Translations under genes and position numbers: made by a program | Assembly: GCA_008632985.1 (NCBI GenBank) | Contig: QPGO01000027.1 | Coordinates: 372,001-436,000 of the forward strand | DNA length: 64,000 nt | Direction of reading: 5' to 3' | Source of the DNA: Psammoneis japonica | Lineage: Eukaryota | The notes under the pieces: model-generated | The model's database searches: none | What the model was told of the DNA's origin: nothing | What the model saw: only the letters and a program-made list of their open reading frames with translations | In this document: one piece after another, positions 1-57,332 of the stretch | Layout: every line of letters starts with the position of its first letter | How positions within the stretch are numbered: the stretch's first letter is position 1

Positions 1-13
1 TTCTCTCTACTAG

Positions 14-9205: not shown

Positions 9206-9573
9206 TGATCCCACCGCTTTCACGGCTCTCAAATCCGACAAGCAGTGGCACACTTGGCACACCTCACTTGTGGCACAAGCCCGTGCCCAAGACGTCGAGT
9301 GCATTCTAGACTCGTCGTACAAACCGACCAGCCCCGAAGACAAACTGCTCTTTGCTGAACAGCAAAAGCACATGTTCGCCGTCTTCGAACGCATCCTTCT
9401 CACCGACAAGGGCAAGGCTCTCATTTGCGAAAATGTGGGGTCTTCTGATGCACAGACCGTCTGCCGCTCCTTGTCTGAGCACGCGCTTGCCTCCACCCGT
9501 GCATCTGTCGAGTCCTCCACCCTGCTCACGCACCTCACCACCGCGCGTCTTGGTGATGGCACTTGGAAAGGTC
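9206..9573 (+). repeat. Inverted copy of gag segment 10009-10376, probably an assembly chimera from another copy or allele
   Basis: 368-bp reverse-complement match; the junction falls on a GATC present in both partners; abuts the N gap. Confidence 0.85.
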
Positions 9574-9916
9574 NNNNNNNNNNNNNNNNNNNNNNNNNNN
9601 NNNNNNNNNNNNNNNNNNNNNNNNNNNNNNNNNNNNNNNNNNNNNNNNNNNNNNNNNNNNNNNNNNNNNNNNNNNNNNNNNNNNNNNNNNNNNNNNNNNN
9701 NNNNNNNNNNNNNNNNNNNNNNNNNNNNNNNNNNNNNNNNNNNNNNNNNNNNNNNNNNNNNNNNNNNNNNNNNNNNNNNNNNNNNNNNNNNNNNNNNNNN
9801 NNNNNNNNNNNNNNNNNNNNNNNNNNNNNNNNNNNNNNNNNNNNNNNNNNNNNNNNNNNNNNNNNNNNNNNNNNNNNNNNNNNNNNNNNNNNNNNNNNNN
9901 NNNNNNNNNNNNNNNN
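9574..9916. other. Assembly gap (N run)
   Basis: 343 consecutive N. Confidence 1.
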
Positions 9917-11752
9917 CTTCTGTCCTTCAGAGAAGTGGTCACTGGCCGGGATGAGTGCCTCGCACTTGCGCAACTGATCTTGCCAATGAAGGATGAACCC
10001 GTGGGTCGGACCTTTCCAAGTGCCATCACCAAGACGCGCGGTGGTGAGGCACGTGAGCAGGGTGGAGGACTCGACAGATGCGCGGGTGGAGGCAAGCGCG
10101 TGCTCAGACAAGGAGCGGCAGACGGTCTGTGCGTCAGAAGACCCCACATTTTCGCGAATGAGAGCCTTGCCCTTGTCGGTGAGAAGGATGCATTCGAAGA
10201 CGGCGAACATGCACTTTTGCTGTTCAGCAAAGAGCAGTTTGTCTTCGGGGCTGGTCGGTTTGTACGACGAGTCTAGAATGCACTCGACGTCTTGGGCACG
10301 GGCTTGTGCCACAAGTGAGGTGTGCCAAGTGTGCCACTGCTTGTCGGATTTGAGAGCCGTGAAAGCGGTGGGATCACGCTTGATGCCTCGCTTGAAGTCC
10401 CGCACCGGGTCGCATGCCTTGGTCGGGTTGGTGACATGTGGAGGTGCAAGGGGTGAGCTGCCGATGGACACAGAAGACATGCAGTCGGGGCTGAGGCGGC
10501 AGGCAAGGAACTCGTCATGCGTGAACAAAGAGGAGTTGTTGGCAACGTCAAGACCTTTGTGTGCTTTGACAATGTACAGACTGACCAGTGCTGCTAACAT
10601 GTTCTTACAACCACGGGGCAAAGGGATTGCATCAGTGCCGTTGTCGCACTCAAGCGAGTCGATTTGGGACGGCATGAACGTGAACAGTTCCTGATGCGAG
10701 TCCGTGCCGTCTTGGGCCAAAGCCAAACGAAGAGGACTCCCAGCACCTTGGGCAAGCACGGTTCCAACCACGTGCTCGAAACCATCGGTTTGTTGCTGAC
10801 GAGTGAGAACCATGGCAGACAAAGGTGGTGTCAGGACAATCAATTCTGGTTGGGAAGCGAAGGTAGACTCGAAACTTGGGTGAGAACAGACTTGACTTGA
10901 AATGGACTTGACTTGAAATCTTGAACTGTCTTAAAATCAGAAGTCGCCGGGCTTTGTCATCCCGTTCGTTGTCAAGTGCTAAACTTCCTGTCCGGTCCGT
11001 AGAGTTGTGCCGGCACGTCCGAACCCGCAGCTGGCGGCGCTTTGGGTTGCTTGCGAGCGGAGCAGCGGGTTGCAAACCCCTGCAGGCAAGCTGACTGGAG
11101 GTGGACAAGACCCCCGAACCGTTCTTATTTTGTGTCGGTTGGATTTCCCGATCAGGCTGGCCAGTTGACGCAGGCGTCAGGCGCTGTGGACGAACGAACA
11201 AACGCGGGAAAGCACCCTCGCCCCAACGCAGGCTGCAATCACGGCTGCCTGCTCTCACAGTCGTCCTCGTGGACCCAGCAGAACTGCAGAGCACCAGTGG
11301 TCCGGGGCAGATCAGGTGCAATGGACTCGGTGTGCTTGTAGAGTGGCAGCAAAACCGTGGTCCAAAGAGTGGATAAAGGTTCTTGGCCGTGAAGACATGT
11401 GTGTATGTGCACATGTCTTCAGCGACGAAGATCCTTGAACATGTGGGGTTCTTGACCGTCAACCGAGGAACAGGCAAATCAAGGGATGTTGATCAAGGAT
11501 AGACTTGGATATGACCGTTGAATGTAAGTCTTCAGCGATCAAAGGCAGCACAATCAATCCAGACATCCAGCGGTGAGGAGACTTGACGGTGACGTTAACT
11601 TCCTGCCGATGCCCTGGTTTGAATGCGCGTAGACTTGCCGATGTATGTAGAAATATACGGAGGTCCACGTAGAATTGAAATAGCGTCGTTGGTAAATCAA
11701 CGACGACGATGGCGGTTGCTCAATGGGTTGACAATGAGCAAGACTGCCAATC

Positions 11753-12028
11753 TGACAGAAAATGAAGGCAAATGGCAAGAATTCAAACAATGACTCCTTG
11801 CTGCTGTCTAAACAGCAGATGAGTCTCCGCTCAGAGACCGTTGCAGGAGCCGAAAGACGTGTAAGTCGGTATAATCGGGCTACTGTTATTATTCTTGTGA
11901 GCCTTGTGGCTCGAAAGCAAACTACATCGCGCGTGAACGCGCGGAACTAAAGCACACAAAACTGTGCACGGTAAACTAAACAGCGCGCGATGCTTCGCGC
12001 GCACCTAAATCCTGTTCAAATCCTGTCA
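11753..12028 (-). repeat. 5' LTR of Copia element (less mutated copy)
   Basis: Direct repeat of 4349-4624; keeps 12 TA dinucleotides versus 3 in the 3' LTR. Confidence 0.97.
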
Positions 12029-14599
12029 CCAAGGGTGGAAGAAGAAGCAAAGTTTGTCAAATGCTGTCTGTCATCCTTCTGGACAATGCCACACAGGCCA
12101 CCATCATCAGCAAAATGGGTTGATGCTGCCATCTCAAATGCTTTGTGCTTCAAACCTCCTTCATGTTCAAGTGTGCAATCCTCTCCAAATTTGCCAAGTC
12201 TTGCACATTGGAAGGGGATGGCACATCACCAAGGACCACATTGAGTGCACTTCCATGGGCAATGCCGTGGATCACTCTGTGACAAGCCCAGGCTCATTGC
12301 GCACTCCTGAACCCCAAATTGTGCACCTTTTTTACACTTTGTGCAGTGTGCACAACTCCACTTGTCTCTGGCACTGGATGATGACAAGACACATGACAAT
12401 CCAGTTGAGTGAGAAAGCAAGAAGCAAAGTGATGCTGCCAACATCTGAGCAGCTGTTGTTGTTCCTTCTGCACTGCACCATCTGTTTGCACAAGAGACAC
12501 TTCTCATTGTCAAAGCAGCTGTCATGTGCAGTTGGAAGAAAAAGAAATCAGAGGCAGAAAAGCTGAAAAAAGCACTGGAGACTTCAAGGAAGGCTGCTGA
12601 GAAAGCTGCTGCCAAAGAAGCTGCAACAAAGAAAGGAAACCACCAGCCAATGTGTCAATTGCTTCTGTGCTCAAGATGTCTGAAACGAACTTCGACGAGG
12701 ATTGTGAGCACTTTGGAGCCCCGCTGAAATCTGTTGGAAAGCTTGAGAACTGGTGCAATGTTGAGTGGAAGTGGAGCAAGGCAGGTCAAGAGATCAATTC
12801 ATTTTGACTGCAATCCAGATGCACATGATGTTGCAGTTGTGAAGGTGTTGCAGGAGAGCAAGAAAGAAACTGAAGCAAAGCACCAGGATGTGTGATGAAA
12901 CTGGCGAAACTGGCACGCCATGTCTGCACGCCAACCAAGGGAAGGAGCGAGCACAAAAAGAAGGGGGGAAACCATGAGGGTTTGGGAATGGCAGCGTGTT
13001 TGCCATGAGACACATCTGGCCATGTCTGAAGCTGCATTTCTGGCGGTCCTTGTTCAACTTTCCCATGCTTCAGTTGAGTGAGTTTTTTCTCAGCTCAACA
13101 AGTGTGCTCTTGTTGAGACAGCTCAGCACAACATGTTGCACAAAGATGCCACTTTGTTGCATCTTTTTTTCTTGTTTGCACACAGCACATGCTGTCAATC
13201 AAGACCACCAGTGGTGCTGCAAGAGAGAAGCCTTGAGTCAAAGAGAGCCATTTCTCAGCTCTAGCATGCTTCCATGGTGCAACTTTGTTGTGTCATTTTT
13301 CACATTGGCACAAAGGATGAGGATTCAGCAGCAAGCACAGTGCAGCAGTGTGATGTGATTAACAGCATGATGCAGTGGCAATGTCCCTGGTCCATTCCTG
13401 GTCTCACACATGTGAGACAGTGCAGAAATTTTGGTCACAGACATTCTTTGGGTCATTCTGCCCCCTGTCTCACAAACAATGTGAGACCAGGATTTTGTTC
13501 ACATCAATGTCATCATGTGCCACATGAAATTGGATGCACACCTCATGCAACATCCGGCATGTGCAACTGAATGAAAAAAAGGCAGCTTCAAAATGTTGTT
13601 CCTGTGGAATTTTGCATGTTTTCCAGTGCAAATCATGGTCTCACATGTCTGAGACCAGGGTCACATTTAGACCTGAAATGCCTCTCCCCTCCGGATGCAT
13701 TGTGGAAAGCCACTTCACAGGTTGTTTGAACAATTTCAACCACCAGACACTTTCATTTGAGAATGTTTTAGCTCCTTTGGTCTGCTCAGGTGTCAAATGA
13801 CCAGTTCCATGCATGGTTGTGGGTCACTGAAAACCTGGTCTCAGAATGGTGAGGCCAGGATTTGTGGACCAGGAACATGATGCACTGGTGATGCAATGCA
13901 GCAGCAATGTAAAATGCAATCAAGAAGCAACAAACAGCATCACATTGCCAGCTGCCAGCAATGAAGCATGGCTGCGCTGAACCTGGCACTGCACTGCACA
14001 CATTCTGCACAGTGCACACTCTGTGCAATGCATTGTGCGCTCCACTCACTGAAAATCAAAAATGGGCCTGGCCCCACTTTTTGACATTTCTGATTGGGTT
14101 TCACACCAGTGTGACAGGGAAGAAAGTTTCTGTTGACATCCTGCAACCACCCCCCACAAAGCCATCCATTGCCCAGCATCTGTGCAAACCCTTCAACTCC
14201 AAGAGCTTTGCAGCATCTGCCCTGCCTGATGCAACACCCTCCAGAGCTGGTGATGGCAAATTTACCTTGATTCACCCACCATCACCACACCAATCAGCAG
14301 TTGCAGCACACCTTGAAAAAGGCCCAAAACTGTCAAAAGTTTGTGGGGCCAAGACATGCAACATGGACCGTTCCTCTCCACCCATCAACCCCTTCAATGC
14401 AAATGCTTTCAATTGAGTCTTTGGCATCTGATGTCAAGACAAAGAATCAAAAACTGAAATCTGGTGCATTTTGACCTGTGAGTGCACATCATGTCAGCAA
14501 TTTGAAAGAAGTCTCACCTGCAAATTGTGCACCAGCCCATGAGCCAACATCCAGCTGTCATCATGCATCACAGGAAATGGCTCCAGCAAGAACTGCACA

Positions 14600-15020
14600 A
14601 GCCTTTTTGAGTGGTTCAACATCAACCCATCTTCCAGACAGCCAAACCTGGATCCAGGAACATTCTTGAACCCCCAAGACCAAAACCATGTCAGACATGA
14701 TCTCCAACCCATCTTTGATCAACAAGGACAACCTTCAGAAGCTGCACTTCCGCTGTGAGCAACCCATGCATGCAGGGAATGTCATCATTGAAAACAACAT
14801 GCTTGTCATCTGCAAATCCATGATTGACTCTGTTGGAAACTTCGCCAAACTTCAAATCATGCCATTTGAGAATCTTTGGAATGTGACATTTGTCATGTTC
14901 CACACAAACCCCATTGGAAGCCACTTTAGCATGCACCGCACCTTCCACCACATCTGACTGCAATGCTTCTGGCCAAACATGCACAAGCACATCACAAACT
15001 GGATCAGCAAATGCCTTGCC
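14600..15020 (+). pseudogene. Degenerate retrotransposon integrase zinc-binding (HHCC) fragment
   Basis: LQIMP...FHTNPIGSHFSMHRTFHHI*LQCFWPNMHKHITNWISKC resembles the H..GH.G...T...R..YWP.M...I...C motif, with Tyr->His/Cys and Arg->stop changes. Confidence 0.6.
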
Positions 15021-16399
15021 AAACTCAACAATGAACTTGAACTCAATGGGGTGCATGCCAAAGATGGGTTCTCACAAGCAACAGTGGACTGTCTCAAACC
15101 CTCATCAAATCCCATTTTCATTGAGGTGCTTGAAGGCATCAATGCAAGTGTAAACAACAGCATGGACTTGACACTTGACTGGCCCTCACAGTCCACAAAA
15201 TTGGAGCACCAACTGCACAGCAAAACCACAAACCATCCCAACCGGCATCAAATCTGAGCCACCTCATGTCCTGCATCATCCAGAGTGAGCACAACAAGCA
15301 GTTCTTTGTCTCATGCTGAGCCCCTGGCACTGCTTGCACTGAGTGGAATCTCATTCAAGCAAATTGAACACTGTGGCCAAATGCCCTGATGCATTTTCAG
15401 ACAACAAAATCTGCGTTGAATTTTTTGCTCATCATCCACACCACAATGATGTGCAGCTCAGCACCCCAAATCAATGCTGTTGGAAAGAGCATCACTGACT
15501 CAACAGCAGGTTTGTTCTCCACAACAATTTCCACCTTCTCAAGCCATCACCAAATGAGCACAGTTGTGCACGTGAAAAGTGCTTGATTGTTTTCTTGCAG
15601 CGGGTGCATGTCAATCACCCAGATGTGTGCCTCAACGGACCCTTCAATTTTGCAGTGATCAGGCATGCAATTGTGTGTTCTCCACAGACTCCTGGAAAAT
15701 CCTGTCATCATTGTCGCAACAACACATGAGAATGAAGCTCCAACCAAACAACCGTCAAACCTGTTGTTCTGGCTCAACATCATGAACATGCAGTTTCACA
15801 CCATTCATTGGGACCCTGCAATGGAAGCCCAGGCATTTGCCCTTCTCACTCACAAACATGTGCACAACAATTAAATGCTGAGCTCTCACAAGCTGTCAGA
15901 CCATCAAACGATCCACAACCACCATCTCCTCTTAAATGAGTTGCTCCCAAAAGATTGGCCTGGTCCAAAACCATTTTCCCACCAAAACAGAAACCACCCA
16001 AAATGGCACCCCAGCCCAAAATGGGCACCCCCACAATTTTTCTTTTTCATTCAACACCCCTCAGGTTTTTGCAAATCATGCTTTTTCTCCTCACCCATCA
16101 TCCTCTCCAACATCATCCCCATGGTGTTCTGTCTGCATGAAGCATCTGAATCTTGTCAAAAGCTCCACAGCTTTTGCCATCTTTTTTGGGTGGCTTGAAA
16201 GCAGAGCTTGTCAAAGCTGATGTCAGCAATGCCCAATTCCAGAAAGCTGTCAACCATTGGCACATGAGTTGCCAATTGTTGGCAGTTTTCCTCTTTCCTT
16301 GCCACTTTTTCAGTGCACCACAGGAGAGCAGCTCACAATCTGGGTGATCATCACTCACTTCCATGCCACTCCACTTTTAAGAATTGATGATTCTTTTTT

Positions 16400-18700
16400 G
16401 CTGCAATGCAGCAAAGTGCAGCACACATGTTCACAAAGCAACAAATGAAGACATTCAACCTGTGGCAAGAGCTGTTCCATGCAAACTCAAGCAATGTGCC
16501 ATTTCCTTGCTCACGGGGTCCATGCTCAAGTTCCACACATCAGCCACATGCCCAACGGCAGCATTTGCATCGACTGCATCATCCTCATCACGATCCTCTT
16601 GTTCATCCCAAACATCAACATCTTGCAATCATTCCATCCTTTTGTGTCGTCAATGTGGAACATGACATTGGTCAGAAGACACGCTCTTTGCAAGGCCCTG
16701 CATGCCAAGGTTGGTCCTTTGCATTGACATTGCTGACCCACTCTTGTGACTTCCTCTGTTGGCACCCCAGGCAGCTGCAAGGCATCCGTTGCACCAACGT
16801 GGAGCTTGTCCCAGCACAAAGTCTACAAAGAGATCACAGTGTGCCTGCAAGCTGTTGTGCTCACCTTTTTCAAATCCCAATGGTTGTGCCACTTTGCAAC
16901 AAGATGCTCAGGCCAGAGAATGTGCGGTTGTCACTCTTTTGTCTTCCTGTCCATGTGAAGCTTCCTTCAACATGAGTGGCTGATGACTCCATGTGCCCCA
17001 TCTCTGGATCACTCAAGACCTCAAAAGCTGCAGCTGCCAGGCCAGTGCACTCCTCTCCATCCACTGCATGAGTGCTGATTTTTTGTTGTCATCTTCTGGT
17101 GCAGTCTTGGGCTGGGACACAAGACAAGTGAAGCACTTGTCCAGTTCTGTCTTGTTGGCTCCATTTTGTGAGTCCACCATGCCCTTTTTTTGCCCAAGAG
17201 CCAACACTGCTTGGCTGTGTGTGATTTTGAACTCAAACACCAGGAGCAACAGAAGGAGCAGAGCTGCTCTGCTTCAGTGCTGGCAACAGCAGCCATCCAA
17301 ATGGTCCAACATTTTCTTCATTTTCTCTCATGTCATTTCACCCCATTTGACAAGGTTCTCAAGCATGGCTTTGATGTTCTTGCACATGGTGGCTGCATCC
17401 CACTGTCTCTCAACTAACAAACATGAGCAGAGCACCATTTTTCAATCTGTCTTGCCTTGGACCTTCAAGTTGATGGTGGCTCCTTCCATTGACACATTTT
17501 GATTGTTTCCAAGCCTTTCAGACACAATGTCTCCATCAGGTGTGGCATCACACCACTCAGCATGATCTCCATCTCCTTGCTCATTTCTTGACCACATTCA
17601 TTCATTGCTCCCCAACATGATGACATGCATCCCATTGTGGAACATCTTTTTGAGACATTTGGAGCACATTCCTTTTCTTGCCATGAAGTCCTTCATCAGG
17701 GCTCTGACTCTTGCCCTCAATTTTCCAGAGGTGATGTTGGGCCTTTTCTTGAGCTTTGCCTTTTCCTCCTCAGTCATTTTCTCACACCTCACATTTGTTG
17801 CTTCCCTTGTGAATGTGACCTGTGCTGTGGATGTTGCATTTCACAAAAGTTGAGAACACATTGCAGCTGATGGGTTCATTGCAATCCTTCTCCAATTGGG
17901 GGCTTGTTGCACAGGGCAGTTGGGGCATCTCCTGAGAACACAAAGTGAAGATGGGAGAACACTTCAGTGTTGCCACAACTGACAGTTTCAGCAGCATCCC
18001 ACACTCTTTTGTGAAGAGGCATGCCATCTTTGTGCAATGTGCTTTGTCTGTTGACTCTGCTTTGTGCATGAGCCATTGCACCCTTCTGCCATGCCAGTGG
18101 CTCAACAACTCTTGTTTGTCATTTCATGTGACACAAACTTTGCAACCACACATTTGCCTGCTCCTCTTTGTCATTTTTGACACCCAGTTGGGCATGAATT
18201 TTCTGAGTGCTGTCTCTGGCAACAAACACAGCTCCATTGTTGTCCCCTGAGCTCCACAAAATCCACCACTCCTGCTGGGATCTTGTGTCATTTTGTTGCG
18301 CAGTTCTCAAGGCAACATGGCAAGCAGCTTTCACTGTGTTTCTTCATGCTTGTTGTCACATCTCCTTCTTGTGACCCTTGCCCATTTGTGAGAGCATGTT
18401 GGCACACAACATCAGCGGCAAATTTGCAACAGCAGAGACAAAGCAACCCAATGATGGAAAGACTTGCCTTTGTGGCTTCTCTTCCAAATGGTGTTGTTTT
18501 TAAGTGGAGAGTCCTTCATGTGTCTGTTCTTCACAATCCAATCTCTCAAGCCTTCAATGAGCTCATTGGGGCATTTTGACCATGGTCTCTTTTTCTCTGC
18601 CAACTCACATGATGCTTCATCCCCATTCTTTGCTTTCCTTCTCTTCTTCTCCAATCTGGCAAACAAGCAAGATCCAGCAGCAGCAACCAGGATGCCAAGC
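16400..18700 (-). pseudogene. Degenerate DDD transposase relic, Sola2-like
   Basis: Minus-strand LDHLDGCCCQH*S (~17270-17310) back-mutates to SDGCxxQYRS, followed by LALGQKKGMVDSQNG (cf. HGKGxxDG); upstream Cys motif QMCGCKVC. Family assignment is from remembered motifs; limits approximate. Confidence 0.5.
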
Positions 18701-19378
18701 TGGTGGCTCAGTGCTGAGTCTTCAGGTGATTCAGGAGGGGCATGTTTGCTGTTGTCAATCCAGTGCCATTGGCAATTGCACGGCATTTGTCCATTGGTTG
18801 GCCATTGTTTGACTTTGTTTTGCTCATGGCTTTCAAGAAACTCCTGGTGTTTTGAGCCATTTGCATGCTGACTTTTGCCTCCTCAGAATTAAAGCCAGCC
18901 ATTGATGATGAAACTGCTGTGACTCTTGGATCTGCAAGGGTGCCTTGTGATGCCAGCAACCATTGTTGATCAAAGTTGCCTGCGCTTGGCATTGCAACTG
19001 CTGTCGTGTGTTTGGCCCTGTTCTTTGCCCACGTTGCTGCCTCAGGTGCGTCATTTCCTTGCCACAATTGCCTGCTCAAATTGCCTGGCTTGTGATGGCA
19101 ATGCGCAAACTGACCCAACAGATTTGATGCATCTGGTGTTGGCAGATCTGCAAGCTGGTTGCAACATTGCCCATTTTGGTTGCAGTGTTGCCCACCTTTG
19201 AGCAGCGCCACTTGTTGCATCAGAGTCTTGAGCTGCTGATGGCCTTGTTGAAGTCTGCAATCATTTTGCTCAAAGCAGCACCAGCTTTTTCTTTCTTTGA
19301 CCCACTGAACAGCAAGTGTTGCATCCACAATGCCCAAGAAATTGACTGCATGAAAACAGCTGGGACTGGATCCATCTC

Positions 19379-20225
19379 TGACAGGATTTGAGTGAGATTT
19401 TAGTTCGTCACACATGATTGTGTGTGCTCTCAGTTCCGCGTGCATCGCGATGCAGTTTGCTTTCGAGCCACCAGCTCACAAGAACAACAACAGTGGTGCC
19501 AACATCACGACACCAGTTTTTCGGCTCCTGTGACGGTCTCTGCATGGAGACTCATCTGCCATTTAGACAGCAGTGAGGAGTCATTGGTTTCTTCCACCCA
19601 GTCATCTTCATTTTCTGTCAGTCCGCAAGGACATGCGTTGAGCAGATCATTGATCTGCACATCACTTTGCGTCACCTTGGTGTCCCCATTTGTGAAACAT
19701 GTTGCATGTTTGGGGACAACAAGTTGGTTGTGGACAGTGCTGCCATCCCGCACTCCAAGTTGCACAAGCGACACACCGCCCTCTCATTCCATCATGCACG
19801 TGAGGCGATTGCCTCCGGTTTCCTTGAGTTTCATTTCATCAAAGGCTCCTGCAACCCAGCTGACATCCTCAGCAAGCATTGGGGTTGCTCCCAAGTCTGG
19901 AGCCTCCTTCGTCCTCTAATGTTTTGGAACTTTGATCCTGAGGCTTTCAACCAATCTGACCTCGAATCTGTCGCTGTTGATGCCTCAAGCAAACTGGGGA
20001 GTGACAGGATTTGAACAAGATTTTAGTTTGTCACGCACAATCATGTGTGCTCTTAGTTCAGCGCGCATCGTGCGTGCGATGTAGTTTGCTGACAACAGCA
20101 GTGCCGACATCGCGACACTTGTCTTTTGGCTCCTGCAATGGTCTCTGCACGGAGACTCATCTGCTGTTTAGACAGCAGCAAGGAGTTGTTGTTTTCTTTC
20201 ACCCAGTCATCTTCATTTTCTGTCA
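19379..20225 (+). mobile_element. Non-autonomous deletion derivative of a closely related Copia (LTR - RNase H tail - PPT - LTR)
   Basis: LTRs 19379-19620 and 20002-20225 are similar to the reverse complement of 4349-4624; TSD ATCTC at 19374-19378 and 20226-20230; the 381-bp interior encodes ARTCVEQIIDL...NPADILSKHWG; PPT AAACTGGGGAG precedes 20002. Confidence 0.92.
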
Positions 20226-23200
20226 ATCTCTCTGAGGTTGTTTGGCACAGACAGTGCTGGAGGAGAGAATGCCAAGCAACATGGAGGCAAGGCAACTCAT
20301 CTCTGAGACAACAGCAGAGGCAGCAGAGTTGCTTTCAATGGCACATGTTTTTTCTGCTTCATGCCTCTCTGTTCAATCCTTGTTTCTTTTGTCCTTTTTG
20401 CTCACTTTGGGTGGCATTGTCAGGAGCAAACAGCGCAACATGTGCACTCAGCTCCACTGACATCAAGAAAAAGAGGAGATGTGATGCCACTCTTTTTTTT
20501 GTGTTGGCTCTTTGCACAATGAAGAATGTGGGAAGTCTTTCAGAATGGTGGTCAGATGCAACAAAAAAGAAACAGCAAAACATGCTCTCAAGAAATGCAC
20601 CTGAAAAACATCAATGCAGAGTTTTCCATGTCAGTTTCACACAAAAAATTCTGCTCACTGGATCATCCTTCTATTTCATGCACCCTCCAAGCAATGACAA
20701 CCATGGTCGGCACTTCAAAACAAACAGATCTGAGGAAAGAAACAATGAAAAATTGGGGGGAAGTTTGCCAGATTTCTTTGCACCAAAGGCACAGTGACAG
20801 ATGGGGGACTGACAAAATGTCCAACCTCCCCATGCGCATTTCTCACCCTGTGGGATGAAAACACATCAGAGGCATTGGCACACATGTGTGCACTGCCTGC
20901 TGCTGCCATTTTTGCTGTGCAATGAATTCTGACAATGGCCGTTGCACATTTTTTTAGAGTGTGAAACAAACCAGCATGGCAGCTTTGAAAGATTGTGGCT
21001 GCACAAGGAAACAATCATTGACCAATGTGAGCCAAGCATTTGTGCTGGCTGCTTTTGGCATCTCTTCCATGTCCTGGAGAAGTTGCTGGTGATGTGTCCC
21101 AATCCACCAATTGGTTGATGCCAATGAAATGGCACTCATCTTGATTGTTGGTGTGGGCACCAAATCCATGCCATGGACATGTGCAAGCAATCAGAGGCAT
21201 GGAAGTGAGAGGAATGGGAAATGGCAGCAGAGGATCTGGTGGTGTTGTGGCTGTTGAGATGGCAGGTGAGTTAGACCCAAACCTTCCAGCACATGTCAAA
21301 GGTTCTGTTTTCAGCTTCCCAGAAGAAGATGGCACAGAGTCCTCTCAAGTGATGTCAGAGCTGCAGAAGAAATCCATGGAGACTCATTTGTTTGATTTCA
21401 TTGGAAATTTCTGCTCCAACAAACAACTTTTGACCATCATGATGACAACCCAGCAGCACACAAGAAGAGGCAGAGGTTGTTTTGTCAACCAAGCTTGCCA
21501 TGTGCAGCTGGAGGGCTCTCCGCAGCCTCCCCCCCATCAAAGTCCTCATGATGGGCTTGCAAAGTGGGTCTTCAACATGCTTGCCTGTGAGATCTGCTCA
21601 TGCTTGTTGGTCATTTCCAGCACAGCAACAGGCAGTGTTGGGTTCAAACCACCATTCACAATGTTGTTCCAAACCTGTGCATGGCTTTTGTGCTCTTGCT
21701 GAGAAGTGCGGCTGGAGCAAGATCTGGATCTGAACAATTTTTTAGAGCCATCATTCTACAAATTGCAAGCACCAGAGGAATCAAATGGGCTGTTGCAGAA
21801 AGAAACATTTCTGCCTGACCCCAAATTGACAATGAAAGCCACACATGACAACTGTGTGGACAAAGATGCCCAGCTGAAGCCACAGTCCCACACCCACTCC
21901 TGCAATTGACTTTGACAAGTTGGGGCTCATTCAAATCTGCCTTGACCATTGCTGGGTGCAATGTGAAGAATGAGAAGAGACAACTTTTGGAAGATGCTTC
22001 TTTCAAGACAACCCAAGAGAAACACCCTGACAAGTGCTTTTCATGAGCACACACCATGCTGCATGTTGGCTTTCACAAAAAATGCCAATGATGAGAGTGC
22101 TCAGCATGCTTTGTTGCACTCTTGTTGGTGTTGACAATGACACCTTAAAGTGCAGGCCACTCTCAGAGGCTGTTGGAGATTGTGTTGCTGCAAGAAGAAA
22201 AAGCCAAACAAGAGTTGCTCATTGAACCTGCCAATGCCAACAAATTCTTTGTGCAAGTCACCAGAGCCATCTTCTTGGCATTTGCCACCCAGAGCATTTG
22301 ATCTCAAAATCTTCATCTCTGAGTCTGCTCCCAGGTCATGGCAAGAGTCTTTAAACTCAGAATCTTTCTCTGAGTTTGCTTTCAGGTTGTGGCCACCTGA
22401 AGGCATGGACAATGTAAAAAACATCATCCAACATGTTGTCCCAGCATGTGCTTGCCAAGTCCTCATCAAAGACAGTGGCCAATTTCTCATCAGCTCTGTC
22501 ACAAAAAGCAAGTTTTTTCAAACTCATGAACCTGGTGCATTGGTCTTGCCTGCAGCCATCACAGTGATGCTGGGCTTTGTCATTGTGTTGCTGCTCTTTG
22601 CAGAGGCCCAGCAGAAGAAGTTGCAAAATGTCAGAAGCTGGCTCAACAATGTCAACTTAAGCGGCAGGCTTTGACTGGGTCAAAGTTGGCCAGACCCTTC
22701 CTGTGGTGATGCCAGCAGCTGTGCCATTGTGTTGGACTCAGGGGCCAATTCTCAGGCACACCACCAGCAACCTTTTTTTCTTGGATTTAGAAAGATCTTT
22801 TCTGGATGCAAGTGACTGCAGCCCCCCTCTTCTTTGATTTAGTGGAGGGTCCTTCCCAGGCATGGGAAGTGTCCTTCATCTGCCCTTTGTGGCAACCCTG
22901 CTTGGCTGTGTTGCCTTGGTCTTTTAAAGCAAAGAGTTTTTTTTTGTGCTTGTTCTTGCCACCCTCAAATGGTTCTGAGCTTTCTTCTTCTCAGTTTTGT
23001 TGGGATGATTCTTCCTGTGTGACTGGCGGTGATTGGCTGCTCTCTTTGTGTTGTTGTTGTGGCTTTTCACTGCACACCCTCATGAACAATCAAACTTTCT
23101 GATGAAACAAGTCTTGCTCACGTGACAAAACTTGTCACCCTCATGCAAGAATTGTGTGGTGCAGCAGTTGTCAAGAATGCTGCTGCAAGTTTCATTGATT

Positions 23201-26200
23201 TTTTGTCAGCTTTCAAGGAGGCAGCATCAGTGCACAAGCAAATGCAGAAATCCAGCAACACCTCGCACATGTGGGGTGCTGCTCAACAGCAGGATGTGTC
23301 AGCAGTGAAGAAATGAGGATCAAGGCAACCAGGGATGACTGATCCTTTGGGAAGAGAGCAAATTGACTCATCATTGACAGCACTCTGGAGTGCATTTGCA
23401 GGGAATTTTTGGCGCTGATCATCACCCTCACAGCTTTGGAGTCCAGAGCCAACAAAGTGCAGCTCATGCAATGACTCAGATGCTGGCCAACACATCCATT
23501 GCTTGGCTGGCCATGGCACTGTTGCTGTTGTGATCTGTCTGACATGGGTTTTTGCTGCATCACTCAACCTGAAAACAGAAATTCTTCATTGGTTTGCTGC
23601 CATGTTGAGCCCTTTGGTCACACACAGCGCTGCAATTTGGATTAAAATGAGCTTTCAACTCAGCTGCACACAGTGCCAGTGATGAACACTCATCTTGCAG
23701 GTGATCATGTTGCACTTCCTGAACAAGGCTCAACTTTCTTTGTCAGAGTCAACCAACCACCCATCTTTGCACCCATGACCCAGGTCTTGCTGTTTGCTGC
23801 TGCTTGTGATTTCTCAGTGCTTGTTCTGTGACTGGAGTGTTCAGTGTGATCTCTTTTTGTGCAGCCCACTTGCACAATCATGTTGGCACTAGCTTTCCCA
23901 CATGATGCCATTTGAAAAGTGCCACTGCTGCTGCTCAGCAGCTGTCATCACAGCCCCCTCCCCCCCAAAATTTCAGGACAATTGAGAAGGAGCCTGAGCT
24001 GGCAACAACATTGAGTGATGACAGAAGAAGGCCTTGGCAATGAAGGCACTCAATGACAAGAGGCCAGCAAGAAAAGGCAAAGCACAGGGTGGACCCATTT
24101 GATGCAAAAGGGTGCTTGTCAATGGCACTCAACTCTCTGGAAGAAAGGCACCATGGCAAGATTCCAATGTGCACACTGCAGCAAATTTGTGTGACTCTCT
24201 TGTTGCAAGTGAGCACAATGCACCCTGACCCATGTTGCTGCAAAAGCTCAATGATTTTTAAACCAGCTCACACAAAGCAAAGTTTTTCCCCTTGTTTTTA
24301 AAAGCCAGAAGCCACTCTGTTGAGAGCAAACATTGTTTGCAGCAGCCACTTTGTGAAAGTTGGAAATTCAAGAAAATGAGGGTCTGCCATTGGCGCAACA
24401 TCTTGCCATGAAAAAAAAAAAAGGCTTTTTGGAGACAATGTCACAACAAAAACCAACCTCACTCCACTCATGCTCACTCTTCTAAAAAGAAAAAAAAGTC
24501 AAGAGTGGTGCACAGAGAACACCCTGGCTGGGGCAGGGAAGAGTGGTGTGCCATGCATGTCACAGGGGTTGATGTGGCCACACCAAACCAACAAAAAGAT
24601 TTCTGTTTTGGAGCTGTTTGCTGTGGCAAAAGCTTCTGTCACAATGGCAACAATGCTTTGCTTCTTGGCAAGCCACGTGGATGTTGGCCAGCATGACCTG
24701 AGTTGTTGCATCATGGGCCACACTTTGTTGGCTGGACTCCAACCTGTGAGCATGGCAGTGGGTGAGTGCCAAAGAAACAACCCCACAAACAAACTTCAGA
24801 GTGCTGTCAACACTGAGTTGATTCTTGCTGCATGAGCTTTTGCTCAACAGAGTGGCTGCAAACACTTCAAAGAATTTGGAAAAGAGCAACAGTGTGCCAT
24901 GTGAGTTGCTTCAGAAACAACCAATCTTTCACAACAAGTGGCACACCTGGTTGGGGTGCCATGCTCAATTGTGAGACAAGAGAGCTGCGTGGATTTGCTG
25001 CAGTGTGTGCTCCACATGACCCAAGATGTTGTTGCACTTGCTCAAACAATGGTTGGTTGCAAGGCACTGTTTTTCATCAGGGTGGCACCTGCTGAAGGAC
25101 AGTGGTGGTGGGCTTGGCCTTCTTCTTGAAGCAAAGGGCAAGAGCTGCAAGTTTCCAGTTGTTGAAAAGAGCCTTCTGAAGCTGTGATCCTTGCCAAGCC
25201 ATCTGTTGCTGTGCCAACATCATTTGCACTTGCATGTGCTGCACCAAATGTGTCAGCCAATTTCAATCAACACAGTTGTCTTCAGGAGTTGATGCCTGAC
25301 TGGTGGGTGCAGGGACCACACAAAAAAACCTGATGTGCACACAGACATCACTGTGGGAGCAATGGCCATGCTTGAGGAGTCAACAACTGACCCATTTCAG
25401 GCATGGTGAGTTGCAGCAGAAGCCAAAATGGAGGTTGTGCCATGCTGCACAGCAACATGTGCAGCTGCTGAAGTCACAGCAGCTGCAGCACCTCCAGTGC
25501 CACCATGGTGCTCAGCAGGCCTTTGGTTGAGTTGAAGTGGAGTTCCTGAATGTGGGTGATTTGTGCAAGTTGTTGTTGTCATTGTGCGTGTCAAACTCTG
25601 GGTTCATGTGGCAGCACAGCCCAGGTTTGTTTTGCCCTTGCTGTCAACCATGCTGCAGCAACAAGAGGCATCAGCAGCCAGCAGCTGGTGTGCTGAGTTG
25701 TTGAGCATTGACATTGAAAGACATGCACCTCTTTTGACCACATCCCAATGATGCATTTGGCTTGACATCTCCACATGGTTTTGCCATTGCTCAAAAGACA
25801 AGGGAATGCACACCATCAAGAGGTCATTTTCTGAGAAAACCAATGAAACAATGTTGGTGATCACACTGCCCAGGCAGCAATCGTTGCTTGTGCATGGTGA
25901 CAAACAATGTCCAATTGGAAAAACAGGGTTGCTGCCATTGGAACCTTGTGGTGGGAGGGGTGTGTGATGGTTGTCACCAGCCATGTTGCTTGTGTGCTTC
26001 ATTGTGCAGCTCCATGGTGGCTGAGCTTTTGGACACAATGGGGCAATCTTGGCAACAAATCAGGAAGCCATGCAGGCATGATGCAGTGCATTGTTGCATC
26101 ACTCTGCATGGCTGCCAGTGTGCACACATGCATGTGGAGTTTTTGGGCCATGTTTTGGGAGCACCCCCAATTTCACAAAAAGTGGCTGCTGTTGCAAAAA

Positions 26201-28687
26201 TTTGCTTGACAGAGCAGCTGCCAGTGGTCCACAATGCTGGCACAAATGCAAGTCTTTTTGTTGAAAAAAGAAATGGGCTCTCATGAGTCTGTGCACAATG
26301 AATGCTTTGGAGATGGTGTGGCAACAGAAGCAAGCCTCACTCTGTTCACAATCATTCTCATGGAGAGGAGAAAAAAATGATCAAGAGCACACAGGACATT
26401 CCCAGCTGGGGTGGGGAGGAGAGGCAGTGCTGCCACACATGATCCAGGGATTTGACACAGCTGCAAACCAACAAAACATTTCCAGTTTGGGGCTGTGTGT
26501 TGCTGCAAAATCTTCTGTCATGTGCGTGTGCAAGATGGCAGCACCAAATGGATGCTGGCCAGTGCCTGAATCATCACACAGGCCACACTTTGTTGGCTGA
26601 AGACTCCAAAGCCATGAGGGGATGGCACAACAATTGCCAAAGAAATGTCTGGACAAGTGCGCTCTGACAGAGCATCATCAACACCCCAAGTTGACACTCC
26701 AGCTGAGCTTGAAAAAAATGTCAATTGCCCTTGGTCACCTTGGTCCTCAGCTCTTCAATGCAGGCATCTCATGGTGGTGTGTTGAGCACTCTGGCTGCAG
26801 CAGCCAGATGTTGCTGGATTCATGGGTGCCTCCATTGTGCGCTGTCACCTCCCAAAAAGGCACTGAAGAGCTGGCAGCTGTTTGTGATGGTGTTGACTGC
26901 ACTGCTCAATTTTTGAACAAGAGAAACAATTTCATCTCACATGAGTTTAATCCCATCTGAAAATGCTGCATTTTTTTGCAGTCTCAAGAGGTGCAGTGCC
27001 AGCCAGCAGCTGGTGGACAGATGGTGTTTGTGAACTCAGGCCAAGCTGGGCTGCTCAAACATTTTCTGTTGCCAAATTTTGTTCTGGCCTCTGAGCACAC
27101 ACTTGATGGGAACAACATGGCATGGCCACTTCCTGTGTGTGTGCACATTTCAGGTCAATGTTTTTTGTCCTTTTTCCCATCTTGTCCTCCAAAAAGACAG
27201 TTTCCTGGCAAACTTTTGTGTTGCAGCACTGTGTGCTTCCAGCAACATTTCTGAAAATGCCCCTGGGACACCCCTCTTGTCCCACACAAGACAGAAGCAT
27301 GGCACAACATGTGAAATGCTCCCTTTTGGTTGTCGCTGCCCCATTGTTGCATTTTCAACCAGTGCTGGATCTTTGTGACACATCCTTCCTTTTTCCTCTT
27401 TTTTTTTCTTCTTGGGTTGTTGCAACACTGTCAGTCAAGCTCAGGCAAAAAAGCTCTTTTGTGAAACCCGCGTGGCACTTGACTGGCAGTGCTGCTGTTG
27501 ATGGTGAGCAAGGAGGGTTGGCGAAGCATCCGCACGGGGCAGCTGGCAGCTGAGGTCTGTTTGGTGCTGCGCCACATGCAAGGCCGGCAGGGACACAGGA
27601 GTGCAAACACACACTTGACAATTGCTGGACTGGTGCAAGCACAGAGACAGTTTTTTGGCAAAGTGCCTCATGAGTTTGCTGCGGGGCTGCAAGATCAAGC
27701 CCTTGCCAAATGGCGGCTGGTGTGTTTGCGGTGGAGTGTCAGATGGGAGCTGCTGCAAAAAACACCAGGGTGTCAGAAAGCTTGGCTCAACAGTGCAGAT
27801 GCAGTCAGAGACACCCACTGGCAACTTCAAGATGAGCTGCGGCAGATGGCGTGGGAGAGAGCTGGCATGTGAGCTGATGGGCTGTGGGGGAGCGGCTCTG
27901 CATGAATGTGGCTGACAGCAACACTTGCAATCTTTTTTCTGCTGCACCCACAAGAAGAGCAGAGGGCTGGAAAAATTCTGCATCATTTAAATCTTTTTGC
28001 AAGGTTGACTCAAACTGGTTGGGTGGCTTTTTCTGGAACAATGTTGTGCGCGCTGGATGACTCATGGCGATGCAAAAGTCATTTTGCGCGGCAACAAGCT
28101 GGGCACTTTTTCGCTGCTTGCCCCCTTTTTGGCGACAACTGCACACCACCTGTCACAAAGCTGTGTCAGTCAGGGGGCATGATCTCACTTGTTGCAGAGT
28201 TGCAGGGGATCCTCACATGCCTCACATTTGTTGTGCTTCACAAACTCAGACTTTTGAGCAGCCTGTGTGGCAAAAGCGAGCAAGAGGAGACAGCGGCTCT
28301 GGAGCAGATCATTCTTTGGCAGCCACAGCATGATGATGTCACTCAAAGGCCCCACCCAAATCACCTTGTTGATCTTGCAAAACTGACCCCATGTTCATGT
28401 GCATGGTGGCCGCCGCCGCCAGGTCTGGAGAGAGTCGCTCAATTGGGCCTCACAGCCTGGCGGCCTGCCGGGGCGATGGATTTTGCAGATTGTTGCACCA
28501 TGCTCTGCGCAGAACTGTGAGCACAAAATCCCACAAGGGTTTGTACTTGATTGCCAAAAATGAACTCTCCAAGCTGTGCTGTCCATTCCACTCTGGGGAG
28601 GGGCGTGGCGTGCTGGATTTGCAGTCGATCCTCGAATGCCTTGCAATTTTAGCCATCATATTTTAATTTTAGCCCGTCACTGTGCAT

Positions 28688-28759
28688 GTCGTGGTGGTCT
28701 AGGGGTATGATTCCACTTTAGGGTGGTGGAGGTCCCGGGTTCGATTCCCGGCCACGACC
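28688..28759 (+). tRNA. tRNA-Pro (anticodon AGG)
   Basis: Acceptor GTCGTGG/CCACGAC, D arm TGGTCTAGGGGTATGATT, anticodon arm CCACT-TTAGGGT-GGTGG, T arm CCGGG-TTCGATT-CCCGG, followed by a TTTT terminator. Confidence 0.97.
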
Positions 28760-29283
28760 TTTTGGGTAGTAATCGTTTTGCGACGTTGCGTTGGAGCCCT
28801 CTGACAGAACAGCTAGCAAAACGCGGGGTCGTAGACGGATGCAGATGGTAATTTTTTGGTTGCACAGTCGCAATAATCAACCACTCGTATCAATACTCTC
28901 ATCGGTAACATTATGTTACTAGCGACCTGCTCGAAACTCTTGTTTAGCCTTTGTTTCTACGGCATCTTTCGCCAGCTGTAAACAGGGAAATTCTCGCATG
29001 GGATGCGCGCGAGAACTCTCCAATTTTTAAGTCGTACTATTCGTACGGTATGCTCCATTCGATGGATGGCCGATGTGTTTTTTTCTTTTTGCGACAAGCG
29101 ACCAGTCACTGTTTTCATTTTGTGTTTTATCGCTACACACTACTAAATTTGAAAATAGTTTCACTCTATGTTTATGGCACCTGCTTTCTTTTTTATTCTC
29201 AAGCTGTGACTTGGTACAGCAATTATAAAAAAAACAAAGGTACCGTCAGTGCAGGTGCGTGCAGGTACAACGTACAACAAAAG

Positions 29284-30049
29284 ATGTCAGGTCGCGGTCG
29301 AGGTCGTGGCAGAGGCTCCAAGGGCTACGTTCCTCCCTCGGGTGCACAATTGTATCTTCAACGTTCTGCTCAAGAATGTGGTTTGGATTCGAAAAACTTG
29401 CGCGCCTTGCAGACGTGACGCGGCCTTTGCTCTGTCCAGACTTGAAATGGCATTCCAACGGATCCATCTGGCAACCAGAAAGCGAAGAGAAACCGACTCC
29501 ACCCACCACCGCGAAACGATCGTCCACAACCACGTTTTTGATTCAAAAGCAACGTGAAGTGCATCGAAGAATGCAAACAAGTGCTATTTTGTTCGAGAAT
29601 CCAATACACAGGAATCCGATGTGGTGCGGTATTCAGACACGGCTGCTCGAAAAGCAAAGCGACCACGCTCTGTGCACGACGCTGTCTTGGAACAAATGGG
29701 CCCAGCGATTGCAAATACGGATTATGTACCCTTGGAGTTGTTGGGACGGGAACAACAGAAATTAGCAATGTTGGAAGAACAAGAAAAGAAGAATCAGGAA
29801 GCGTCCGACAAGCTTGCGGCAGCTACGAGTTTGGACCATTTGGAAGCACAGGAATCGAATCCGCGAGATCCAAACGCTCCAGCAACTGCAGCCAATCCTG
29901 CTGCTGCCACTGCTGAGGATGATGCGTTGGCTAATTTGAGCGATTTAGAAAATAACGAAGAGGAAGATGACGGAGATTATGAATTGAATTATTATGAAAG
30001 TGGAGGGGAAAGTGATGGAGACGGTAACGATACTGAAGCGGTATTTTAA
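29284..30049 (+). CDS. RPC31: RNA polymerase III subunit RPC7/RPC31, with two apparent 1-bp frameshifts
   Basis: MSGRGRGRGRG N-terminus, VVRYSD, YVPLEL and acidic tail EEEDDGDYELNYYESG...EAVF. Frames join if one base is restored near 29412 and one near 29583. Confidence 0.85.
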
Positions 30050-30112
30050 ATAATGTAACGTACTTCCACATAAATTACTTTACATACTACACGGTGTCAT
30101 CTATCAAAACGT

Positions 30113-31223
30113 CTATTCCTCCTCCAACTCTACCGTTTCCACATGCAAGGTCGAAACGAGCTTGTCCACCACGTTGTTGAGAGCAACCGCAGCAGCATTC
30201 TCCGGAAAGGCATCGACAAAGCACATTCCCTTTTCACAACACTGCAAAAGGTCAGGGTCAAGCGGTAAGGAACCCCAGTACGGGACACTGTATTGTTGAG
30301 CCATGCCCTTTGGTCCGTTTCCCGACTCGGCAAAGACTTGAGCGGATACCGTCAAGTCAAGTAGCTCTGGACACTTGTTTCGAATCAACTCGAGTGTTTC
30401 TGTAGTGCATCTTCTTGATTGGTACTCAGGAAATTCAAGTCAGAGAGTTTGGTTTGATAACGTTCCATATTGGAGACGATTCCGAGAACGGGTACCTTTG
30501 TCTTTGGCAGAAATTGAGCTCCTTTCGGACATCAGCCATGCTGACTTCCTCGGGTGTTGTGACGACAATGGCTCCGCTACAGCTTCTGCTTTTTGCAAAA
30601 ACTGAATAGTACTGATATGCTCGTCGCTAGTACCGGGTGGGGTGTCGACAATGAGATAATCCAATCCCTCCGTATCGCCCGTCCAGTCTGTCTCTGTTAA
30701 AAACTGTTGAATAAGCGCATTCTTACGCGGTCCTCTCCATACCACTGCGGCATTGTCGTCTTGAAGCAGAAAACTGATCGACATGACAGCCAAGTTGGGT
30801 GTTGGATAGACAGGTGTCCATGCACCCGACCCGGACCGATGAATCGTGTGTCCTCCACCCGAAGCCCCAGCCATGCGAGGTGCCGATGGTCCGCACAAGT
30901 CGACATCGAGTAGTCCCACCGCATATCCTCGTGACGACAACGCATGACTAAGTTGTGCCGCATTGTTGACTTTCCGACTCCTCCCTTTCCAGATAGCACG
31001 AGAACCACGTGTTGAACATTGGAAAGAGAGCGCTGAAGCGCAAGCTTTTCTTCGTGAGCTCGTGCTAAGGCTTCTGGAGAACTATAGGCGCCCGACGAAC
31101 ACGCTGCCTTGTTGGGACAGCCTCACAGGCATCAGCCTTTCCAGCGGTTGGAGCTGTCGGGCCCACGCATCCTTCATTGGCATTGGCTGGTGCATCAGCG
31201 GGTTCAGCGGTAGACGAAGTCAT
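30113..31223 (-). CDS. NBP35: Cytosolic Fe-S cluster assembly factor NBP35/NUBP1, with several apparent 1-bp frameshifts
   Basis: N-terminal CVGP...GKADACE(G)CPNKAAC Fe-S motif, [48 protein letters not shown]. Frame breaks sit mostly at G/A runs. Confidence 0.92.
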
Positions 31224-57300: not shown

Positions 57301-57332
57301 ATTGTGTGGTGGCATCCACAAATGCCCAGCTG

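Follow-up and report, generated by a model that had tools for sequence, protein, structure and literature searches.

Loss of TpA from mutated DNA blocks of Psammoneis japonica depends on at least two flanking bases on each side

A 64,000-nucleotide stretch of the Psammoneis japonica genome (contig QPGO01000027.1 of assembly GCA_008632985.1, positions 372,001 to 436,000; here called the window) contains sharp-edged blocks to which TpA-specific transitions, acting on both strands of the integrated DNA, are confined. It was found that a TpA (TA) is lost at a rate that varies with the two nearest bases on either side, if not more, a context rule both finer and wider than the purine or pyrimidine nature of the neighbouring bases. 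Protection by T at -2 or A at +2 is as strong as the effect of the base directly adjacent to the TA. Flank-dependent TpA erasure is probably the main cause of this context bias, and we put the probability at roughly 0.7. The rates reported below draw on this one 64-kb window, in which mutated DNA contributes 190 TAs and gene DNA 857.

Three kinds of DNA make up the window, namely gene blocks, young mutated blocks and old blocks, with sharp edges at ~3500, 12030, 28500, 34300, 42500 and 54000. They are laid out as follows (obs/exp, observed/expected ratio; LTR, long terminal repeat; Pfam domain matches with E values):

1-3500, 28501-34200 and 42501-54000: gene blocks, used as control; TA obs/exp ~0.3-1.1 per 500 bases and 0.43-0.76 per 2 kb; CG ~1
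3501-11500 (-): young block B1, a Copia-type retrotransposon with ~850 bases to the left of the element; N gap at 9574-9916
12034-28500: old block F, TA and CG nearly gone, CA/TG doubled; 42 TAs
34301-42500 (-): young block B2, a retroelement with RVT_1 in 36761-37852 (-), E=4e-14, and LTR-like repeats at 34160-34342 and 40001-40183
54001-64000: old block C2, an independent replicate of F; 34 TAs

Taken together, the mutated blocks have a TpA obs/exp of 0.02-0.06 and a CpA/TpG obs/exp of 1.7-2.3. Per 500 bases, block F gives 0.00-0.12 for TA, 0.00-0.48 for CG and 1.6-2.1 for CA+TG, and the two old blocks combined give 0.00-0.14 for TA and 0.00-0.48 for CG, with CA and TG both raised about twofold. 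The loss requires a 5' T: among the NA dinucleotides only TA is erased, with AA, CA and GA not depleted. Of 27 one-kb windows in the old blocks, 26 hold CA and TG in balance, hence both strands are hit. In the young blocks, B1 as well as B2, the TA obs/exp is 0.03-0.29 and CG is mostly retained. As the young blocks have lost TA and kept CG, the CpG loss of the old blocks appears to be a separate, slower process. The mutated DNA reaches beyond the Copia element, which carries RVT_2 in 4572-6119 (-) (E=2e-20), given that the 850 bases to its left (3501-4348) are also TA-free.

Each TA can be classed as YTAR, RTAR, YTAY or RTAY according to the purine (R) or pyrimidine (Y) that flanks it on either side. 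An earlier note on this DNA had described the TAs left in block F as mostly TTAA, TTAG, CTAA or CTAG, with no ATAT, GTAC, GTAT or ATAC, and a full count bears this out. The 42 TAs in 16,467 bases comprise YTAR 33, RTAR 4, YTAY 5 and RTAY 0, with the individual tetramers being TTAA 15, TTAG 13, CTAA 3, CTAG 2, GTAA 3, GTAG 1, CTAC 2, TTAC 2 and CTAT 1. ATAN, GTAC, GTAT and TTAT are all at 0 in the full count of 12034-28500. The examples cited are likewise present, with TTTAG at 13668, 13769, 19401, 20955, 21743 and 22788, TTTAA at 22352, 22925, 24259, 24299 and 27988, and CTAG at 13262 and 23890. Among the 857 TAs in the gene DNA of the window, 133 are YTAR and 263 RTAY, the latter being the commonest TA class in the gene blocks.

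The class spectrum of block F (33/4/5/0, in the above order) departs from every expectation considered. Its own dinucleotides, in a first-order Markov model, would give 13.5/9.7/10.9/7.8 (p=3.4e-9); the TA spectrum of the gene domain would give 6.5/11.1/11.5/12.9 (p=1e-27), and re-creation of TA out of CA/TG regardless of context 9.7/10.3/11.7/10.3 (p=5e-16). When set against the other Y-R dinucleotides of F, YTAR has an odds ratio of 12.6 (p=3e-14), and RTAY stands at 0/42 against 982/3951 (p=1.3e-5). With the embedded Copia remnant excluded, YTAR still accounts for 27/35 sites in F. In the replicate block C2 the split is YTAR 18, RTAR 8, YTAY 7 and RTAY 1, which also deviates from the Markov expectation (p=0.013), with an odds ratio of 3.9 for YTAR (p=1e-4). 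Just 2 pairs of mutually duplicated sites occur among the 76 TAs of the old blocks. A strand asymmetry between TTAG and CTAA (21 vs 6 sites) has borderline significance in F (p=0.02) and lacks significance in C2.

To compare contexts, the count of each xTAy was divided by the sum xTAy+xCAy+xTGy+xCGy, a denominator chosen because transitions cannot alter the purine/pyrimidine class. The resulting TA share in old blocks, relative to gene DNA, spans a wide range. At the spared end are TTAA (0.40), CTAA/TTAG (0.37), GTAA/TTAC (0.12) and CTAG (0.09), while the depleted end consists of CTAC/GTAG (0.035), ATAG/CTAT (0.018), GTAC (0.008), ATAA/TTAT (0.007), ATAC/GTAT (0) and ATAT (0). A likelihood-ratio test in the old blocks rejects one common rate across contexts (chi2 95.7, p=1e-20). 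Depletion is thus strongly unequal across NTAN after correction for composition, in line with the preference for purine-TA-pyrimidine put forward by the earlier note. The R/Y description itself turned out to be too coarse, as the 3' order is T >> C > G > A, and it missed the effect of the bases at ±2.

This finer rule is best described on the strand carrying the A, by writing each half-site as T-A-n1-n2, where n1 is the +1 base and n2 the +2 base (-1 and -2 denote the same positions on the other strand). By +1 base, the order of loss is TAT > TAC > TAG > TAA. In the old blocks, the fitted per-strand ratio of erasure to creation is 809 for a 3' T, 78 for C, 21 for G and 10 for A (p=1e-20 vs a common rate). 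The young blocks give fitted per-strand hazards in the same order, with T 1.93, C 0.97, G 0.57 and A 0.41 (p=1e-11 vs a common rate). An A at +2 is found in 64% of old-block TA half-sites compared to 26% at all Y-R sites, and in 45% compared to 23% in young blocks; the corresponding gene values are 26% and 26%.

The TA share rises with the number of sides (0, 1 or 2) that carry T(-2)/A(+2). In old blocks it is 8/3589, 39/2469 and 29/442 (0.22%, 1.58% and 6.56%), and in young blocks 28/2337, 69/1407 and 17/223 (1.2%, 4.9% and 7.6%), whereas it remains flat in genes at 458/2806, 345/1967 and 54/345 (16.3%, 17.5% and 15.7%). All four mutated blocks show this ±2 effect, with odds ratios of 9.4, 12.8, 4.4 and 5.0 (each p<=2e-7), and it is absent from all three gene blocks (odds ratios 0.84-1.09). 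The 4.4 belongs to B1, the youngest element (p=2e-7). A joint model assigns independent contributions to +1 (chi2 84 in old blocks and 21 in young) and to +2 (chi2 82 in old blocks and 41 in young). The commonest leftover hexamers are TGTAAA, TCTAAA, GCTAAA, ATTAAA, CTTAAA and TTTAAA, and T at -2 is enriched also where -1 is G or C (TGTAAA 9, TCTAAA 9, TCTACA 4). The flank effects combine in a manner nearer to multiplicative than additive, as seen in the old-block series.

A metagenome scan with the Copia reverse transcriptase protein gave 63 pattern matches, 3 of which were relatives (L001-L003), all of them unmutated and used as baseline only. Neither the +1 nor the +2 effect was seen in these three relatives, and the pattern is therefore not inherited transposon composition.

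The direction of change can be read from copies of known relationship, for which the following features were used:

4349-4626 (+): left Copia LTR; 9 TAs lost that the right LTR retains, and one site hit in both LTRs
11753-12030 (+): right Copia LTR, hardly mutated; reference for ancestral TAs
19379-20229 (-): older remnant of the same Copia family inside block F; two LTR-like copies; of the LTR TAs, those in CTAA/CTAC are retained and the rest lost
33345-33811 (+): unmutated TA-rich repeat copy; used as reference to follow TAs in its homologue at 54990-55470
54990-55470 (+): fully converted homologue of 33345-33811

Recoding as purine/pyrimidine makes the two members of each LTR pair 100% identical (278, 183 and 99 bases), so that every LTR difference is a transition. 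These differences number 13, 14 and 5, with 0 transversions among the 32, and nearly all lie at TA or CG sites. A comparison of the four Copia LTR copies revealed single sites with TA, CA and TG in different copies, which require a TA ancestor. Whereas the left Copia LTR has lost 9 TAs kept by the right, the right LTR has lost only ~1; the two LTRs of one insertion being so unequally mutated, erasure is patchy within an element. The TAs that the left LTR keeps are CTAA, CTAC and CTAA, and the suggestion that all TAs common to both Copia LTRs are CTA is thus correct. Up to four copies retain the LTR TAs that lie in TCTAAA, ACTAAA and ACTACA, and the other LTR TAs are lost.

The homologous repeat provides a further reference. 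All 42 of the 42 aligned TA sites of the unmutated copy (33300-33850) correspond to CA (25) or TG (17) in the old copy (54945-55510). The unmutated copy itself (56 TAs in 550 bases) lies ~350 bases from a mutated retroelement, which starts at 34160, and with its homologue fully converted this position shows that not every repeat copy is targeted. Pooling all sites for which a less mutated copy is known, TA was retained in YTAR 7/18, YTAY 2/18, RTAR 0/15 and RTAY 0/19 (YTAR vs rest, p=7e-4). In addition, the product follows the direction predicted by a per-strand model (YTAY to TG, RTAR to CA) in 21/31 events (p=0.035). Alignment of the Copia copy to the unmutated relative L001 (70% protein identity) shows that 54 TA sites of L001 correspond to TA 4, CA 20, TG 14 and other 16 in the window, while CA, TG and CG were kept at 51/98, 60/113 and 41/84 sites, respectively.

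Public contigs offer a view of related copies. In one public sample, the only one to contain this stretch, the single-copy block shows 6 differences among those listed, 1 of which is TA/CA, a number too small to give context rates. The Copia family (10000-12030 and 19338-20671) is represented in that sample by thousands of diverged contigs (6895 contigs matched), where summed contig depth is not a copy number. Among the variant rows listed for 10037-11527, 24/27 are transitions at Y-R dinucleotides, often with TA, CA, TG and CG all occurring at one site.

The following model probably accounts for these observations. A sequence-reading mutator would act on silenced repeat DNA and change TpA, on both strands, into TpG or CpA. 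For the half-site T-A-n1-n2, loss is fastest for n1 = T, followed by C and G and slowest for A, and is also slowed by n2 = A. With both strands combined, ATAT, ATAC/GTAT and GTAC vanish first, leaving TAs mainly in T-N-T-A-N-A frames, above all TTTA/TAAA. The TAs now standing in old blocks would represent a balance between re-creation by ordinary C>T/G>A changes and slow re-erasure. Such a balance would mean that the mutator kept acting on old DNA, as opposed to a single strike at insertion. Whether the mutator reads each strand separately is where the evidence divides, product choice leaning for a per-strand reading (21/31) and the near-multiplicative combination of flanks leaning against it.

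As to the chemistry, hypoxanthine pairs with C. By analogy with the alga Bigelowiella natans, the likeliest chemistry is deamination of adenine to hypoxanthine in DNA by a polynucleotide adenosine deaminase recruited to silenced chromatin, to which we tentatively assign a little less than an even chance. In Bigelowiella, the main text of a preprint describes integrated viral DNA in which all changes are A>G/T>C and fall at TpA, so that TpG and CpA arise whichever strand is hit (bioRxiv 10.64898/2026.01.13.699255, Mettrop et al.), and proposes an adenosine deaminase as the agent (bioRxiv 10.64898/2026.01.13.699255).

Old DNA preserves signs of continuing activity. Old repeat pairs were aligned in block F (23176-23638/26422-26894, 24169-24324/24843-25010 and 24422-24814/26300-26685) and in C2 (57544-57910/59351-59722 and 58086-58354/59236-59507). 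At sites involving neither TA nor CG, the copies differ by ~14% through C/T changes, and the TAs lying in aligned old duplicates are unshared in 5/5 cases. One TA of an old copy faces TG in the unmutated copy and is probably new. Given these unshared TAs and the loss of YTAR from the copy with a reference, many old-block TAs may be re-created. At the same time, 1 TA is present at the 1635 R-YR-Y sites of the old blocks, compared to ~59-118 expected from the level of background transitions if new TAs were never erased, an expectation that is rough since the direction of the background changes is unknown. This deficit implies that erasure went on long after these repeats died.

The background changes have a flank bias of their own. 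Off TA/CG, C/T differences between old copies occur at 29/343 sites after a pyrimidine and 43/273 after a purine (p=0.006); within old blocks only, the figures are 17/186 and 29/133 (p=0.002). Read as A/G, these old-copy differences occur in R-[A/G]-Y at 2.4x the frequency found in R-[A/G]-R (29/133 vs 17/186), which hints that the 3'-pyrimidine preference extends weakly to adenines not preceded by T. Leftover CpG displays a mirror-image flank bias, with Y-CG-R at 0.7-1.4% and R-CG-Y at 3.7-4.7% of Y-R sites in both old blocks. This holds without the Copia remnant, and the gene DNA values are 24% (Y-CG-R) and 21% (R-CG-Y). The mirror bias could mean that CpG decay depends on its flanks, or that a weak A>G activity at C-A-Y makes CG anew.

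Several results weigh against flank-dependent erasure as the explanation. All 8/8 YTAR sites of 33300-33850, two of them in TCTAAA, were converted in the old homologue, and 2/4 CTAA sites were lost from the left Copia LTR. No TA context is immune, and the claim that YTAR is spared stands as strong enrichment but not in absolute terms. The 7 retained YTAR events represent 4-5 distinct sites of one Copia family and are not independent. If only the two strictly post-insertion pairs are considered, retention is 2/5 vs 1/8 (p=0.51), and the TA sites kept in the L001 comparison are YTAR 0/9, YTAY 2/22 and RTAY 2/19. The contrast between YTAR and RTAY, which the earlier note had drawn from block F, extends to both old blocks but is not significant in B1 alone (odds ratio 1.4, p=0.33; RTAY 11/56 TAs); in B2, RTAY makes up 3 of the 58 TAs left. 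When the ±2 score is included, product direction falls to 28:17 (p=0.07), and a composition-based test of product direction, for which ancestors are unknown, agrees in old blocks and disagrees in young ones. Additive per-strand rates under-predict sites with one protected side ~3.7-fold. The gene-domain baseline presumes that the repeats once had a similar TA spectrum, and adenine deamination is inferred from the A>G chemistry and the proposal of the Bigelowiella preprint. Finally, survivors in old DNA are indistinguishable from re-created TAs, which makes the term 'surviving' partly an assumption.

This last point leads to the alternative that survives best, in which the eraser is blind to context and the old-block TAs are new, having arisen by C>T/G>A changes favoured after a pyrimidine (as in ultraviolet-type dipyrimidine damage) or by extension of T/A runs (for example TTTCA>TTTTA or TGAAA>TAAAA). 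We regard it as improbable. Creation from pyrimidine-C only predicts 18/8.5/7.5/0 for C2, in excellent agreement with the 18/8/7/1 observed (p=0.97) and to that extent at the expense of flank-dependent erasure, but it fails in block F, where 33/4/5/0 was observed vs 21.6/9.1/11.3/0 (p=0.002). The 32 TTTA and 23 TAAA half-sites among the 76 old-block sites are as run extension would give, yet run extension does not explain T at -2 with G or C at -1 (TGTAAA, TCTAAA, TCTACA). The 5/5 unshared TAs in aligned old duplicates, one probably new TA and the loss of all YTAR sites in the one old copy with a reference also fit creation. In contrast, background C/T differences are rarer, not commoner, after a pyrimidine (29/343 vs 43/273), gene DNA is without a ±2 effect, the same bias is seen in young elements, in which the LTRs differ at hardly any sites other than TA/CG, and ancestral LTR TAs were retained selectively.

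A second alternative accepts the flank-dependent erasure itself and proposes another route, either a double-strand reader of R-T-A-Y or of a hexamer (e.g. one dependent on a modification of T), or Pol-eta-like error-prone repair at WA in methylated chromatin. The near-multiplicative flanks are as expected if one binding event reads both, the best targets are palindromic (ATAT, GTAC), and TA is erased in the same blocks that show CpG decay. Set against a double-strand reader is the product direction, which leans to per-strand reading (21:10), and the young blocks lose TA without losing CG. We know of no enzyme that converts T to C in DNA, which counts against a route through a lesion at T. WA is the Pol-eta hotspot, and a Pol-eta spectrum would include AA targets and transversions, but AA is not depleted (obs/exp 1.1-1.3) and 0 transversions occur among the 32 LTR differences. 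On balance such routes have little chance of being correct.

Editing at the RNA level, ADAR-like or ADAT-like as in Fusarium, of retroelement transcripts that are then fixed by reverse transcription, is very unlikely. To our knowledge, ADARs are confined to animals. A 5' U is favoured by ADARs and in Fusarium editing, resembling the A>G changes with 5' T seen here, and two of the mutated blocks are retroelements. The 3' preference is nevertheless reversed. Passages of PMC11276115 give the ADAR 5' preference as U>A>C>G and the 3' preference as G > C~A > U, while the +1 order in the window is T > C > G > A. For the ADAT-type mRNA editing of Fusarium, passages of PMC4817773 report 5' U at 86%, a 3' order of A~G > U > C and UAG/UAA as best triplets, whereas TAG and TAA are the spared triplets here. 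The argument of the earlier note against ADAR-type editing therefore holds. Furthermore, both strands are hit equally and mutated DNA lies outside the element (3501-4348). Since LTRs are identical at integration and now differ at TA sites, the changes came after insertion, and this divergence, together with the CA/TG balance, points to action on both strands of chromosomal DNA and not on a transcript.

A composition artefact, by which commoner YT and AR dinucleotides in mutated DNA would make leftover TA look YTAR, has next to no chance, for although TT and AA are somewhat over-represented in old blocks (obs/exp 1.1-1.3) and the Markov model lifts the YTAR expectation to 13.5/42 vs 6.5 from gene DNA, the observed YTAR is 33 vs 13.5 and RTAY 0 vs 7.8 (p=3e-9), and a >50-fold range is left after normalisation to the own xYRy totals and is replicated in three further blocks.

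Flank-dependent TpA erasure can be compared to known systems of hypermutation. Repeat-induced point mutation (RIP) of Neurospora and other ascomycetes changes C to T at CpA and so makes TpA. As in the present case, repeated or mobile DNA is hypermutated block by block through transitions, with a preferred dinucleotide and sharp edges beside genes, but the direction is opposite, as TpA is destroyed here (TpA obs/exp 0.02-0.06, polarity from TA to CA/TG). APOBEC3 is a host cytosine deaminase of vertebrates that hypermutates retroviruses and retroelements, acting on single-stranded complementary DNA with a strand bias. It leaves the flank preference of a deaminase as a footprint in mobile DNA; unlike with APOBEC3, the chemistry in the window would concern adenine and not cytosine, and both strands are affected.

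Of the editing preferences compared, the motif of off-target editing by the bacterial tRNA adenosine deaminase TadA is the nearest. Passages of PMC10027721 give it as UACG, with C then G in a hairpin loop. It resembles the present rule in a strict or near-strict 5' T, a 3' pyrimidine and a non-A base at +2, but differs in that T beats C at +1 in the window and that in young blocks TACG, at 0.19 of gene level, is not the half-site with the strongest depletion.

As far as the main text of the Bigelowiella preprint describes that system, both cases involve transitions at TpA to TpG/CpA on foreign or mobile DNA, with neighbouring genes normal. The two differ in setting, given that Bigelowiella is a chlorarachniophyte with viral inserts studied in mutation-accumulation lines, whereas here old transposon blocks of a diatom-like alga are concerned, and in that TpA erasure here coexists with near-total CpG loss in old blocks. 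The main text contains no analysis of flanks, with 'context', 'flanking', 'trinucleotide' and 'tetranucleotide' each occurring 0 times (bioRxiv 10.64898/2026.01.13.699255). No report of TpA erasure in diatoms was found in the literature searched, from whose coverage most subscription journals are absent.

A TpA-erasing mutator of mobile DNA has thus been described once before (2026), in a distant alga and without an enzyme being shown. The signature, T-A-[T>C>G>A] on both strands with protection by A at +2, provides a test criterion for candidate deaminases and narrows the kind of enzyme. It also opens a comparison to the 231 de novo TpA mutations published for Bigelowiella, which may or may not follow the same flank order. 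Transposons in such genomes should evolve toward refractory TA contexts, affecting their Tyr codons and stop codons.

For enzymes there is a precedent, as the APOBEC hypermutation enzymes were identified through their flank signature. A bolder and rather doubtful extension is that diatoms, perhaps the algae of the stramenopile-alveolate-Rhizaria (SAR) group generally, would permanently defend their genomes with a DNA adenine deaminase targeted to chromatin, one that reads N-N-T-A-N-N, re-erases new TA in old heterochromatin and weakly edits other adenines followed by a pyrimidine. Such weak editing, if true, would explain the R-A-Y excess of A/G differences and the survival or re-creation of CpG in R-CG-Y. 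Under a standing defence, selection would favour transposon families with TA confined to refractory TTTA/TAAA-type frames, an arms race in hexamer usage.

The mobile-element origin of block F is partly supported by the embedded Copia remnant, internal repeats and one weak domain match. None of the 75 open reading frames (ORFs) of block F scanned with Pfam reached the Pfam cutoff. A weak Integrase_H2C2 match at 14958-15254 (+) (E=1e-3, 19.6 bits vs a cutoff of 25.5) is the only transposon-like protein trace among them. As all Pfam matches in F are sub-threshold, protein domains do not establish a transposon origin for this block.

Elsewhere, Pfam matches were obtained for 5/18 ORFs, the gene blocks containing CGLD27, an RRM and a NUBPL-type ParA ATPase. 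The Atlas cluster closest to the CGLD27 protein occurs most often in diatoms, which is weak evidence. A 441-residue ORF at 51466-52791 (+) has no Pfam match, and the Atlas clusters closest to it are of Crinkler-N-domain proteins from oomycetes and Mucoromycota (scores 0.91-0.94), to be taken as a lead only. The gene block at 1-3500 holds a 984-residue ORF without a Pfam match, with internal tandem repeats at 916-1743. The TA share of this block is 8.5-14% of Y-R sites, compared to 12-25% in the other two gene blocks, and it may be mildly affected by erasure. Inside the Copia element, 388-base inverted arms (9186-9573 and 10009-10396, 96% complementary) surround the N run at 9574-9916 and may have been produced by the assembly and not be real. 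Towards its right end, B2 carries long (TCAG/TCAC)n tetranucleotide arrays in inverted orientation at 40962-41208 and 41909-42035.

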